64,000 bases of DNA. Origin: Eledone cirrhosa (lineage: Eukaryota). Below the pieces are notes generated by a model. That model ran no database searches. It was given only the letters and a program-made list of their open reading frames with translations, and had not been told where the DNA came from. Shown here in pieces: positions 14,699-60,562 of the stretch. The position numbers and the translations under genes were made by a program. Within the stretch, counting starts at the first letter, position 1; each line of letters begins with the position of its first letter. The stretch is taken from contig OZ024754.1 in the NCBI GenBank assembly GCA_964016885.1, positions 14,942,001 to 15,006,000 of the forward strand, in the 5' to 3' direction.

Positions 14699-15797
14699 TA
14701 TCTCTTTCTCTTAATTTCGAGTATATTTTCGACCGGCCACCTTCCTGGTGGCAAGGTTGTAAAAGAAAAGAAATTGTCATCCCTTGAATCGCAAGAATGT
14801 TTTGCAAATTTTGAAGGTGCCAGCTATCGCAGCCATTTGTAGACTATGAATTAGGGAGCTTCGCTCTTTATCCGCAAATCCAAGTTCAGTCATACTTTGG
14901 TCCAAGCGGGTTGGTATATAACCCGTAGCTCCAATAATGATGCGTATGAAGCTAAAGGTGTATCTTGGATACTGGATTTGTAAACTCCTCATCAATAGTC
15001 CGTAGATGTCCTCCTTCTGTATTTTTCTGACAACGTTTACATCAAGTGGGCAGCTGATCTCCACAACAGAACACGTTTTCAAAGTGTGGTCCCAAACCAC
15101 AATATCAGGCCAGTTGTGCTTTAATTTGGTGGCAGTTTTTATTTTCAGGTTCCACCAGTATTCCTTAGTGCCATCTGTCTCAATATATTCTTCCTCGTTT
15201 GTTGTTAATTTTGTTTTCCGAAGTGCGTTCCAGATGATTCTAGCTATCCCATCGTGTCTCATGGGGAGGTAGTAGAGAGATGACATTCTTTCGCAGTTGG
15301 CAACAATGTGGCGTACATCTTCGATCTTTGTTTTACATAGCCTACATTTATTGTCAGCTGATGGCCCTCCTCTTTTGTGCAGCAGATATTTGGTAGGGAG
15401 TTCTTGTTCCTGTATTGCATAGAGATATCCCCCAAGGCGTGATGTCATAAACTTATCGGAACTCCATGCCAGGCTTTTTGAGTGGTTTATCCCCTCTATG
15501 GTCTGTGTTTTACGTCTCAAGTATCCATGCACAACTTTTTCTGTAAATTGGTCAATTTGTTCATCTTGTTTGAACATTGAATAGGATCTTCCGATTTCTC
15601 TGGGGGAGAGATTTATATCAGGCTTTATTCCATATCTCTCCTCCAGATCAGTCGCTATCCTAATGATATTTTTTTCTTCACGCTCATAAACCTGAGCAAG
15701 ATGGTTGCCAACCTTTTTCCTATGTTGAAGATGTTGCTTCAGTGTTACTATCCGGATCTCATATGATGTTAATATGGATTTTAGACCCCGGCCACCT
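14699..15797 (-). mobile_element. 5'-truncated R4/Dong-clade non-LTR retrotransposon (CCHC plus restriction-like endonuclease)
   Basis: CRLC..E...HIVANC, RHD, PDIVVWD..EISCP motifs. Flanked on both sides by (TACA)n. Confidence 0.85.
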
Positions 15798-15920
15798 GTA
15801 TGTATGTATGTACGTATGTGGTCAGCTGGTAGACTCACCAGATAGTGTAGAATGTATGAAGGCATACCCCAGTCGTGGTGATGGAGATGATATATATTTA
15901 ATGTGCACTATATGATTTTG

Positions 15921-20036: not shown

Positions 20037-20729
20037 CACACACTGTAAACGTGGTTGGTGTTAGGAAGGGTATCCAGCCGTAGAAAACCTGCCAGGCAGC
20101 CATATACGAGCGAAACATGGTCACCTGACCAATCTTGCCTCAAGTAGGACAATTCCCGTCTAAACCCATGCTAGCGTGGAAGATAGACATTAAACGTTGA
20201 TGATGATGATGATGACATACACATACATATATATGCACATATATGTATACATACGTACATATATATGTACATACATATATGAGATGTCAACATGCATGGA
20301 CCTATTATTTTTATCTAAAGACATTTTTTCCAATTCCATCCTATATTATATATACTCCAGTCCTACAAACTGTAGAGTGCTACTTATCCGATATTTGCAT
20401 TGCTTTATTGTGCTACAATATAGCTCACCTCCTACATTATACATATATATATATATATATATCATAAAACATGTCTTTAGAATCACTAGATATAATATAT
20501 ACAATTTCCTCTCCCAATTAGCATAATTAACCATATAAAAAAAATCAATTAGACCAAGCTATAAGAATAAAGGCTCCTATGAAGAAATCTCCGACAAATA
20601 ACCGAAAGCAGCCCCTTCGCGGTGGCTACGATGGAATATTTATCGAACATTTCGACAGCATGTAGAAATCGACCAGGTATACAGTCAACTGTAAAATCAA
20701 ACTTAGAAGAAATGTGTACATACTAAATT

Positions 20730-21000: not shown

Positions 21001-21734
21001 AACGAATAGGACCCCGACGGCTGAGCTCAAGCCGTTTCGACGGCTAATTCTGGACTAAAATTTTTTAGTCCAGAATTAGCTGTCGAAACGGCTTGAGCTC
21101 AGCCGTCGGGGTCCTACTCGTTCCTATTACCCACTCTACTACCCTAAGTATTGAGTACTTTGGTGCGTTATGGTCCATCTGGTTCCTTACCACATTTCCT
21201 TCGTTATATATATATATATATATATATATGAAAAATATGGGTGAGAAGAATACTGCTGGTTGCACATGGATAACATGTTATAAAATGAGTCCCTCATCAG
21301 TGATTTACCAAACGATCATGGGTATTTCATCGCATTAAAAATCATATACCTCACGTTGGAGCGATAATAACTAAAATAAGTTATTAAGACAATAGAAACG
21401 CGTAAAGCGAGTGGGACAAGTAAACAACACAGGGGGAAGCTAACCAAAGATGGAAATAAACACAAGCAACATAGTTATTCTTTCAGCATAAGCTGTGTGA
21501 ATATATGAGCGAGTCAGAAAACAGACCTTTCGCTAGTGAATCCGGTGTTAGAAAGAATGAAAACCGTTTTCCCAGCGAACGGGAGGAAGAAAGAAGGGGA
21601 GAAACAGGGACTGAGTGAGTGGGAGTGCGAGGAATACACACACAGACACACACACACACACATATATATATATATTTTTATAGAAGGAGCTTCTACAGAA
21701 CTAGTACTGTTTCATTCAGATGAAATCTTCAGGA

Positions 21735-21785: not shown

Positions 21786-21871
21786 CCTTCTATAAAATAA
21801 AAAAATGTTACTCTGCCATGTATTGAGTACCTTACTTACTATGGTTATCCCCGACTCAACCCGGGACCTAC

Positions 21872-22147: not shown

Positions 22148-22641
22148 AATATGGTTTTATAAATATAGTTTCCATTTATTTAATATCGTAAATATACTCC
22201 AAATACTTGTTGAGTGCTTTTATATCAGTTATAAATATTTACTAGTTGTAACCCAACAATTTAAATATAACTTTCCATATATATATATATATATATATAC
22301 ATGTACATGTGTATATCTGTGTGTGAAACGTTAGGGAAACAGCGACCCAAATCAGACCCGGTTGGAATATTAAATTGATGTGTGATACTCCCACCAGATT
22401 CGTCGTTTCTATCAACAGTTCTTAAAGTTCACACCTAGGATTTTGTTATCGAGCTCCTAACAACCAGACACACATATATATATATATATATATACATACA
22501 TACCTGTGTGTGAGAGTATGTGTAACCGCGTGCATATCTATTTATATGTATATATATATTATACTCTTACACATATACCTCTGTGTGAGACTATGTGCGA
22601 GCGCACGCATCTGTGTTTATATGTATCTATCTATCTATCTA

Positions 22642-30379: not shown

Positions 30380-30478
<99 letters not shown>

Positions 30479-30691
30479 CAAATTGAAGGATAAGTGTTTC
30501 AAACTTTATTTTATCATGAGTTAAGGTCTATAGATTTTTCCCTGGATTTTACTAAATTCTGTGGATGAATTTATATCCTGATTCTCTTTTGAGATGAGTT
30601 TGAGTTATTTTCCCTAAATCTTTCGTTAACTACTTTTCCCATCTTGACGTTATAGTCGCATATATGTTGAATGCCGTTAGCTTCTTGCTAA

Positions 30692-31180
<489 letters not shown>

Positions 31181-31769: not shown

Positions 31770-31820
<51 letters not shown>

Positions 31821-31825
<5 letters not shown>

Positions 31826-32512
31826 AATGAGAGGTATAGAGATTGTTTTAGCAAGAAGCTAACGGCATTCTATAACATATATGCGACTATAACGTCAAGA
31901 TGGGAAAAGTAGTTAACGTAAGATTTAGGGAAAATAACTCAAACTCATCTCAAAAGAGAATCAGGATATAAATTCATCCACAGAATTTAGTGAAATCCGG
32001 CGAAAAATCTATAGACCTTTAACTCATGATAAAATAAAGTTTGAAACACTTATCCTTCAATTTGGAATAACATCAAATGCTCTGTATAGTCTTAAAAGAC
32101 TCTTTCATGAAAACTTTCAGTGGAGATGGTCACGGTTGGATTTCATTCATCAGCAGAGCTCAACAGAAAACCAGGGCTCTCACAGTAATATAATCCGAAA
32201 AAGGGAATTCTAAAACTGGCTAGTTCGCCTTCATGTGTAATTATGAAAAAGCACATGAGGAAAAAACGGGGCTAGTGACGTCAGGATGGAAGTGAATGTT
32301 TATTTACAAGAAACAGCAGTCAAATACATTCTGAAAAAAAACTCTACAAAAGGAGTTCAGCAAAATAGCAATAATTATCACAGTTTTTATGAAAAAAACC
32401 GGGATTAGTCACAGATAGTTTAAGCACTCTAGGAAAAGAATCCGAGTATAAATATAAATGAGAGGTATAGAGATTGTTTTAGCAAGAAGCTAACGGCATT
32501 CTATAATATATA
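31821..32512 (-). mobile_element. retrozyme/Penelope-like non-coding element, 631-nt unit with about 60-nt direct terminal redundancy
   Basis: ataaatgagaggtatagag...cattctataa occurs at 31823 and again 631 nt later. It has one HHR and a (TA)n flank. Partial inverted copies at 30476..30695 and 2207..2283. Confidence 0.7.
32079..32159 (-). ncRNA. type I hammerhead inside the 631-nt terminally redundant element
   Basis: GCUCUG-CUGAUGA-AUGAAA...UUUCAU-GAAA-G-AGUCUU/AAGACU-AUA-CAGAGC. Perfect 6-bp stems I and II. Confidence 0.85.
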
Positions 32513-32577
32513 TAACATATGTTGATTTAAAACTGCACTATCCACAAGTGTTTATTAACCTTCATATCATGTCTTCC

Positions 32578-32648
32578 TATTTTATCTGATGAAAACACAA
32601 ATGTTATTGCATGATGATATTTGTTTTTGAAATGCGCATAATAAAATA
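32578..32648 (+). ncRNA. type I hammerhead ribozyme, family D second copy
   Basis: Same fold as 7246 with a perfect 8-bp stem I (UAUUUUAU/AUAAAAUA). Confidence 0.85.
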
Positions 32649-32776
32649 CATGGAACTCTTTTAACCATCTTTTGATCTTATATATTATGTATACTCCAGT
32701 CCTACAAACTGTAGAGTGCTTCTTATCCGATATCTGCATTGCTTTATTGTACTACAATAAAACTCACCTCCTACAT

Positions 32777-32842
<66 letters not shown>

Positions 32843-38311: not shown

Positions 38312-38522
38312 CGAAGGAAATGTGGTAAGGAACCAGGTGGACCATAACGTACCAAAGTACTCAATACTTAGGGTAGTAGAGTGGGTAATAGGAACGAGTA
38401 GGACCCCGACGGCTGAGCTCAAGCCGTTTCGACGGCTAATTCTGGACTAAAATTAGACGGCTAATTCTGGACCAGAATTAGCCGTCGAAACGGCTTGAGC
38501 TCAGCCGTCGGGGTCCTACTCG

Positions 38523-55188: not shown

Positions 55189-57026
55189 CAAAGAACCGTG
55201 TATAAATGATCCCAGCGTAGTTCATTTAAATAGTATTAACACTTTTATTTGTGTCATATGGATCTTAACACAGATCTATATCGTTTGATCTTAACATATA
55301 TACTTGTACAGGTTCATCTTATCACAGGAATCCTTTGTACAACACAATTTTACCACAGTCCATCTTTGTATATATAATACACTACCATACCACAGCTCTT
55401 AATTACACAATCACCTCACCAATTCTATACATGCTGCCAAATGATATACAACAATCTCTTATCATTCTATGCCGTATGCAGTGATATTAACACAGCTCTA
55501 TATCCAAACCAATCCAATCCAATCCAGCACCTTCTCACTCTTGTTTGAGGAACACCTCCCTGGTTGATCTTCATCCCTTTCTTTGGTTATGGTTATGTCA
55601 TAGATGTGGTTATGGTTATGTCATAGATGTGGTTATGGTTATGTCATAGATGTAACTGTACTCACCACTTTTGGCCAATTGCAGGATAGTGAAGCTATTT
55701 AACCCATAGTTGGGGTGGATGATCGTTGACTCTGACAAGTTCATCTGCCCTTTTAACAGCTCTTGTTGTTTTGTGTTGCTGAGGTTCGACATACCCCTCT
55801 TCACCAGACCAGAGAACCTGTTTAGTTGCCAACCACCTGACCATGAAGCAGGTTGTACTGGATTACATAGTACTGGTAGCAGACAGAAGCCTGACCTGAC
55901 AATAACATTTCTATATATGAAGTCTGAAATGATCACAGTTTAATGTAATAATTGTTTCTACTTTTGGCACAAGGCCAGCAATTTCCCAGTGTATTACTGG
56001 TACTTTATTTTATCGACCCCGTAAGGATGAAAGGCAAAGTTAACCTCGGCGGGATTTGAACTCAGAATGGCAAGGGCCGTAACTCTATGCATCAAAGCAT
56101 GGCGTCCGACCCTCTACCGATACTGCCAATTCACTAAACAGTTTAATGTAATAATATGACCACAACTGCCATATGATGCAGTTTATCTGATGTGAATATA
56201 GTGAGGCAAATTCATCTACCTTGGAGAGAGATTCATCTGCTTTTTACAAACATTAAATGATGATGATGATGAGCAGGATGATAACGAGCATCAAAATTAA
56301 TATAGTTATGGCATTGTATAGTTAGTAACTATATGATGAAATAAGCAGAAGACATCAAATATATAAACAATTAAATAAATGAAAACAAAAGAGAGCAGAA
56401 ATTTACACAAATAAAGATGGAGTAAAATAGCGAAGGACTATAAAGGCAAAATTAAAATAGAATTTCAAAGTAAACCTCATTAGTTTCGAACTCAGGGTGA
56501 CATAGTGATGGGGATGTAAAGGACTAAGTAAAACGTTATTTGAGATAAATCAATAATTGTTTCTACTTTTGGCACAAGGCCTGCAATTATCCCAGTATAT
56601 TACTAGTGCTTTATTTTATCGACCCCCGTAAGGATGAAAAAAGCCAACATTTTGTGAGGATGGAAAAGTCTGTTACATCAACCCCAGCACATGACAGGTA
56701 CTTTATTTTATCAACCCCATAAGGATGAAAGGCAAAGTTAACCTTGGTGGGATTAGAACTCAGGATGTAGAGAGCAATAATTAACTGCCACTCTAGTGGT
56801 TCTACTATTCCTCCATCCTTTAGATAAATAAATAATAAAAGTTAAGTTTGTTTTTGAAAAATTTGGACCAGATTCTTGCTTCAATCACGGACATTGATAT
56901 ATATTCAGGGGCTGATTATTTGATGAGCCCCAATCTCAGTAGTTTGGAAGAGCCTACAAAATGTTGTTGGTTCTGACTCTCCCAACCTCTTTAACCAAGT
57001 TTTAAAAAATAACTTCAAATAAAAAT

Positions 57027-60160: not shown

Positions 60161-60562
60161 CTGGAGAGAATATCACACACACGCAGACACACAAACATAT
60201 TCGCACAAATTAACACGTGGACACACACACACACATACACATATATATATTATTTTATATAGAAATGGCTTCTACAGGACTAGAACTGTTTCATTCGAAG
60301 GAAATCATCAAGGCTTTCCTGATGATTTCCTTCAAATAAAACAGTTCTAGTCCTGTAGAAGCTACTTGTATATTAAATATTGTATATACTCTACTATGTA
60401 TTGAGTACCTTATTTACTGTCGTTACCCTCGATTGAACCTGGGATACACACACACCTATATATATATATAAAATCAAAAGTTTAACAAGGTTCATTGATT
60501 AATCAATGAATAAAGTTTTACAATAGATTAGAAGCACTCAACAAAGAGGTTTTCTGGAGTTA

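Follow-up and report, generated by a model that had tools for sequence, protein, structure and literature searches.

The window analysed here, a 64,000-nt stretch of the Eledone cirrhosa genome, carries an insertion of a non-coding, 631-nt repeat with a hammerhead ribozyme (HHR), whose genomic copies stop at one fixed point on the 3′ side, in TA microsatellites, and at random points on the 5′ side. The unit is very probably a non-autonomous element mobilised by Penelope-type retroelements (PLEs), and on balance we slightly favour the fuller reading that it is an animal retrozyme likely copied by a Hydra-clade reverse transcriptase (RT), most likely that of a family here termed PLE-B, from a probably circular RNA. 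Two questions are addressed, namely the identity of the enzyme that mobilises animal retrozymes and the way in which Penelope-type RTs pick an internal start; in the portions of earlier accounts considered here, PLEs are merely nominated as retrozyme mobilisers (PMC7229834; bioRxiv 10.64898/2026.07.22.740005). The retrozyme class is already known, and what is new is a covarying hairpin common to the unit and PLE-B. This hairpin and the candidate helper are the main interest of the family and make retrozyme mobilisation directly testable: the existing in vitro PLE assay can be applied to the helper, which has intact copies, to the sharply defined start and to the short, covarying RNA motif.

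The hammerhead-bearing unit in the window

The focal insertion, delimited by sequence comparison, occupies 31826-32513 on the minus strand and comprises about 1.09 units; the unit is numbered 1-631 from 31826 (31826-32456, minus strand). Its fixed 3′ end lies at 31826, with an ambiguity confined to the TATAT at 31821-31825, at the edge of a (TA)n target tract (31780-31825, no strand assigned), and its variable 5′ end at about 32506-32513. The terminal redundancy described in the earlier note was recovered as 55 exactly matching nucleotides at 31821-31875 and 32452-32506 (both minus strand, period 631), the second copy being the start of a second pass and followed by one mismatch and five further matches. 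The note had taken it for slightly more than one pass of reverse transcription around a circular or multimeric template, and a mobile, HHR-bearing repeat templated in this way is supported. The focal copy did run 1.09 units, but because one end is fixed across copies and only the other varies, the redundancy is ordinary random 5′ truncation just past one unit. Nor is it a duplication private to this locus, k-mers of the unit having more than 1,000 exact matches in this 3.0-Gb, microsatellite-rich genome (1,125 for a 20-mer and 1,327 for a 21-mer; none for the reversed controls); unit candidates numbered 2,257 genome-wide at first look. The two inverted partial copies that had been listed for the window are both real and TA-flanked. 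One, at 30476-30695 (plus strand, unit positions ~19-244), has TA on both sides and the usual 3′ end minus its first ~18 nt; the other, at 2207-2282 (plus strand, positions 1-76; previously ended at 2283), has the standard fixed end in (TA)n.

The single minus-strand HHR in mid-unit (32079-32159) is a type I motif whose MFE structure is the hammerhead fold, and the AUA cleavage site anticipated near 32085 corresponds to a predicted cut between 32085 and 32084 (unit positions 260/259). It comprises a stem I of 6 bp, CUGAUGA, a stem II of 6 bp with a 28-nt loop, GAAA, stem III and AUA. Aligned across 31 copies, which span young and old subfamilies, the HHR has 95.4% of its cells paired and two pairs changed on both sides, a covariation score reached by 0 of 500 shuffles of these related rows. 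An Rfam search returned no hammerhead match for the unit, an absence that probably reflects the 28-nt loop II; fold and covariation indicate a type I HHR. In the window copy, HHR position 15.2 (window 32102) is G, which gives a G.A mismatch at the start of stem III and breaks pair 15.2-16.2; U occupies this position in 28 other pattern-matched loci (one of 30 loci fell outside the pattern) and in 30 of the 31 rows of HHR alignment A1. Fold z-scores are -2.56 for the family HHR versus -1.48 for the window copy. With its only HHR damaged in this way, the otherwise ordinary focal locus could not, as far as its sequence predicts, produce a monomer.

As the note had observed, the unit lacks a long ORF, the longest ATG frames across three tandem units of one array (L215) being 36 and 31 aa. 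No RT or GIY-YIG ORF was found in the unit or attached to it in the same sense, so it is not an autonomous PLE. The family has a GC content of 33.5% (measured on L003), and the monomer, modelled as a circle, folds with a z-score of -3.4 against 40 shuffles.

Fixed ends, arrays and the form of the template

Insertion ends were mapped with internal queries, a full-unit query being biased to its own register. Wherever the end was in view, in material that included a set of 60 partly redundant loci, copies start at unit position 1 in TA, with one exception (position 10), and the fixed end was scored in 170 of 195 parsed chains. The remaining 25 comprise second arms of inverted structures, short side matches, diverged copies missed by the parser and three chains (L317, L332 and L335) that start elsewhere than at position 1. 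Circularly permuted starts, one of the expectations of the earlier note, were dropped once internal queries replaced the register-biased one. The note had counted shared fixed ends against its own reading, and this applies to one end only, the other being random.

In a sample of 74 insertions, taken in genome order from the first 100 places of 21-mer matches, lengths range from 22 to 3,630 nt and 16 insertions exceed one unit. The predicted head-to-tail arrays are present, with a period of ~630 nt and a maximum of 7.45 units; at least two full units occur in 16 of 142 young insertions. Of 97 joins within chains, 91 regularly connect the end of one unit to the start of the next, and none of the other six is a truncated internal unit. 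Some copies are 5′-inverted (L184, L217 and L317). Older subfamilies, mostly 76-85% identical (about 78%), have kept the period, the end and the HHR, and positions 571-631, which include the hairpin described below, are the stretch best conserved between old and young subfamilies (0.88-0.90). Flanks match directly in 3 and in inverted orientation in 5 of the 170 insertions, the TA tracts masking target-site duplications; in the latter five (L004, L018, L025, L063 and L109) the two flanks are inverted repeats of each other rather than direct duplications. Other arrangements were seen at individual borders. Two units in opposite orientation lie ~2 kb apart with their fixed ends outward at L164 (G000:C1:105594500-105600800), and at L003, L139, L156 and L329 the hairpin region of a different HHR family, the one found at 21070-21162 of the window, adjoins the 5′ end of the unit in the same sense, almost or entirely without intervening TA. 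A repeat left of L142 that has ~25 nt in common with the unit belongs to an unrelated family.

One fixed and one random end indicate reverse transcription, and the end structure of the unit is not LTR-like. The unit has the marks of PLE-type mobilisation, namely a fixed 3′ end downstream of the HHR, 5′ truncation, partial tandems, 5′-inverted copies and a microsatellite target. That it should be merely the pLTR of a longer coding PLE, as the note had allowed, or a satellite spread at the DNA level is therefore very improbable. Retrozymes often derive from pLTRs, according to the part of bioRxiv 10.64898/2026.07.22.740005 considered, and the insertions inspected number ~170, but no such PLE adjoins the 170 insertions and no Hydra ORF lies directly 5′ of them in the same sense. 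A Hydra ORF start falls within 900 nt downstream in 0 of 101 hairpin contexts of the unit family, and 85 of the 88 full-unit insertions run into another unit start, two ending in TA and one in other DNA.

The fixed end lies 259 nt downstream of the predicted cut, and copying passes through the cut: among the 74 sampled insertions, 40 extend as far as position 250 and 39 of these go beyond the cut, and no more than 8 matches in the genome stop there in TA, versus 1,125 that reach it. A pile-up of 5′ ends at the cut was considered and not seen, the nine pooled ends at position 263 including eight loci chosen for that.

We propose that unit arrays would be transcribed, that the HHR would cut out monomers and a host ligase would close them into circles, and that a Hydra RT/GIY-YIG protein would bind the bulged hairpin described below and cut genomic (TA)n. 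Priming by the cut DNA end would occur at the UAUAU immediately 5′ of the hairpin; the RT would then circle the template through the cut site until it dissociates at an arbitrary point, with inserts of a few bases to more than seven units as the outcome. Because copies terminate upstream of the hairpin and a second end site is absent from the unit, each generation of purely linear copying would cost one unit, yet the subfamilies span more than 20% divergence and some form of regeneration is thus needed. A ribozyme-made circle would supply it most simply, while RT jumping or unequal crossing-over could do so as well.

Under a competing model with the same element and helper clade, possible though less probable, the template is an uncleaved linear multimer transcript in whose RNP the HHR does nothing. 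Arrays would regain their length either when redundant ends undergo unequal crossing-over or when the RT jumps from one RNA end to another, and any circles would be by-products. Read-through of the cut is expected equally from this model. In vitro, HHR mutants had no effect on insertion by the PLE of a lizard, the anole, and uncleaved linear RNA was the main substrate (PMC11167929), and in vitro cleavage of Xenopus retrozyme dimers was seen in only one of nine (bioRxiv 10.64898/2026.07.22.740005, in part). By contrast, efficient cleavage and circle formation are known from invertebrate retrozymes with canonical HHRs (PMC7229834, in part), and the HHR core and covarying stems of the unit have been kept over more than 20% divergence, while each linear generation would cost one unit.

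Array variants do not decide between the two models. Within-array polymorphisms comprise 104 private and 23 shared ones, and mosaic units in L210, L211, L212 and L216 form a period-2 or period-3 higher-order patchwork in which the first unit breaks the period and the breakpoints could not be tied to the cut site. To judge from the sequences, post-insertion recombination fits the patchwork of these long arrays better than one pass round a circle, and in L210, L211 and L216 it would represent the DNA-level exchange invoked by the linear model. Against that model, arrays are homogeneous for subfamily variants: L196 has one internal deletion common to its units, which yields a 599-nt period, and 27 variants are fixed in all seven units of L210. 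All in all, a circular RNA is the somewhat more probable template.

A covarying hairpin and the candidate helper

The unit contains a bulged hairpin, ACUC-GGA-loop-UCC-UA-GAGUGC (32424-32447, minus strand, in the window copy), which we predict to be the RT-recognition signal. It lies 5-9 nt downstream of the fixed end (in the window copy, of the junction between units that corresponds to this end), as does ACUC-CAG-loop-CUG-UA-GAGUGC in PLE-B, and the two have the same UA bulge and GAGUGCUU. The general frame is ACUC-NNN-loop-NNN-UH-GAGURC with a covarying inner stem: in a locus set that includes redundant loci, all three inner pairs form in 477 of 516 frame matches, pairing not having been required. 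Statistics were compiled by triplet types, k-mer clustering of contexts having over-merged and split families; 9 of 13 recurrent triplet types pair, a result equalled in 3 of 20,000 permutations, in counts that take in related sequences. Conversely, plain local alignment of the hairpin region between the unit and PLE-B is weak (its score is reached by 648 of 20,000 shuffles), the PLE-B hairpin is not its MFE fold, which uses another register (z -0.40), and no homology of the unit to PLE-B or PLE-A was detectable outside the hairpin.

The window contains 14 matches to the frame, compared with 0.23 expected. Twelve further copies belong to several other repeat families and have differing, complementary inner triplets; they lie on the minus strand at 3309-3335, 7135-7161, 38357-38382, 49089-49114, 51892-51914 and 60534-60560, and also at 6978-7003, 20354-20380, 21133-21158, 21810-21830, 22196-22217 and 60388-60408. 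At several of the twelve an HHR core lies ~70-140 nt upstream. More generally, an HHR core is found upstream of the hairpin in several families, and several other hairpin families likewise have their ends in (TA)n, at 5-9 nt on the upstream side of the motif.

The hairpin follows the Hydra endonuclease ends of PLE-B, L180, L073 and, imperfectly, L314, and is lacking in PLE-A. Inspection by eye of published Hydra consensi (PMC8557442 File S7) revealed GCUC/GAGC hairpins with paired inner triplets in three of six, all from corals and sea cucumbers (Hydra-2_Amil, Hydra-1_Ajap, at its start, and Hydra-2_Ajap); Hydra-1_Crog has a partial one and two have none. The hairpin matches no known Rfam family, the words 'stem-loop' and 'hairpin' are absent from the main text of PMC8557442, and the titles and abstract openings in our literature search do not describe it, although supplements and subscription papers could. 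We tentatively suggest, while rating it somewhat short of probable, that RCUC-NNN-loop-NNN-UH-GAGY-RC, conserved between this genome and those of coral and sea cucumber, is the template-recognition and internal-start signal in much of the Hydra clade, an element of ~25 nt that suffices for a Hydra RT to roll ribozyme-made circles into (TA)n. If so, both the cis-signal and the enzyme behind the mobility of an animal retrozyme would be identified. The short hairpin would be a tag by which RNA circles are copied, with target priming, into TA microsatellites, and it could be used to find PLE ends and their non-autonomous partners in other genomes.

The search for a helper covered two intact PLE families, PLE-A and PLE-B. 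PLE-B was traced from L299, where a near full-length PLE and a 1.13-unit copy meet head-to-head without an intervening TA tract, (TA)n lying outside both. It is a young, autonomous element of ~3.7 kb (L364-L383 and L339-L363) in which 5′-inverted structures are frequent. Its copies are 98-99% alike, frames of 818-831 aa are intact in 7 of 20 loci, and 10,051 exact copies of its hairpin were counted. It has two 3′ ends ~93 nt apart, site 1 being used in 10 loci and site 2 in 5, with no end seen in another 5. Its motifs (RLRW(T), DKT, CNCx5C and C-terminal GIYRDD, YFGST and CxxC), its HHR and its (TA)n target were judged against the definition of the Hydra clade (RWK-like, DKT and CxCx5C motifs, C-terminal GIY-YIG, HHR and (TA)n target) and, by eye, against a published alignment, both from the consulted part of PMC8557442; they appear to fit this clade, with RWT in place of RWK. 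Pfam gave no match for the PLE fragments tried, a set that left out full-length PLE-B.

In the window, the focal copy is joined head-to-head to a 5′-truncated PLE-B 3′ end (32514-32778, plus strand; HHR core at 32586, end site 1 at ~32680, hairpin at 32693-32719 and end site 2 at ~32774). Direct joins of this kind to PLE-B were found in 3 of 170 insertions (the window, L299 and L177, the last with a diverged relative) and to PLE-A in none; six TA-spaced adjacencies to PLE-B, also seen, are chance neighbours. Given how abundant PLE-B is, the joins are only suggestive of a helper.

PLE-A (L219-L248) is an intact, 808-aa Hydra-type family that ends in (TA)n. In its HHR the core reads CCGAAGA and stem II is very long; the published Hydra-1_Obim starts with sequence similar to the PLE-A end. 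PLE-A was rejected as the helper on account of its lack of homology to the unit, of the exact hairpin and of direct joins.

That another PLE is nevertheless the helper, be it PLE-A, a family of the L180 or L073 type or an unsampled one, with the PLE-B joins as chance neighbours in TA clusters, seems to us rather unlikely; this proposal overlaps with the others as regards the form of the template. The joins are three in number and the search spanned two families, the hairpin is common to several Hydra families, and PLE-A is itself intact and TA-targeting, with a similar AUUUAU at its end. PLE-B, however, has the closest hairpin, along with its near-identical copies and intact frames, and it remains the preferred candidate.

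Relation to known retrozymes and PLEs

The anatomy of the unit fits that of animal non-LTR retrozymes, which, in the sections of two accounts considered (PMC7229834; bioRxiv 10.64898/2026.07.22.740005), are likewise non-coding, low in GC and arranged head-to-tail, have one type I HHR per unit and co-exist with PLEs. The class is further marked by the absence of a primer-binding site and polypurine tract, by target-site duplications that, where present, exceed 4 bp, and by self-cleavage and expression as linear and circular RNA. The earlier note had considered the unit unusually long; its 631 nt fall within the published range of retrozyme consensus lengths (51-972 bp, with a mean of 650 bp in ray-finned fish; bioRxiv 10.64898/2026.07.22.740005, in part). 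They do exceed the 170-400 nt of the circular RNAs proven for other invertebrate retrozymes (PMC7229834, in part), the circle of the unit being a probable one. Unlike retrozymes with pLTR homology to a PLE, the unit yielded none beyond the hairpin, and its fixed internal start, random 5′ truncation and specific cis-signal are absent from the considered sections of both accounts.

Hydra-clade PLEs, as characterised in part of PMC8557442, resemble the unit in their (TA)n targets, HHR near the 3′ end, partial tandems and 5′-inverted copies, and differ from it in that the unit encodes no RT or endonuclease. The cut-to-end distance is 259 nt in the unit versus ~40 nt in PLE-B, and the unit has one end site where PLE-B has two. 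A fixed internal end downstream of the HHR is a PLE signature that has been explained in vitro for the Anolis Poseidon PLE (PMC11167929, in part). There too the RT starts inside the RNA downstream of the HHR, targets are AT-rich and RNA 3′ of the start is required; Poseidon also has two end sites, like PLE-B. It belongs to another clade, however, and its start is an AC-rich stem-loop without homology to the cut DNA, whereas the start in the unit, UAUAU, shares microhomology with (TA)n and is followed on its 3′ side by a different hairpin. Chlamys elements such as MRC1 (PMC8557442, in part) are likewise non-autonomous PLE derivatives with multicopy head-to-tail insertions in microsatellites, but belong to a green-algal, mostly HHR-less clade and resemble their partners over the 3′ end.

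Elsewhere in the window, a 376-aa open frame at 14780-15907 (minus strand) is a fragment of an unrelated non-LTR retrotransposon, and its zf-RVT match was the only one among ten ORF fragments searched against Pfam. A minisatellite with units of 21-26 nt occupies 53926-55204.
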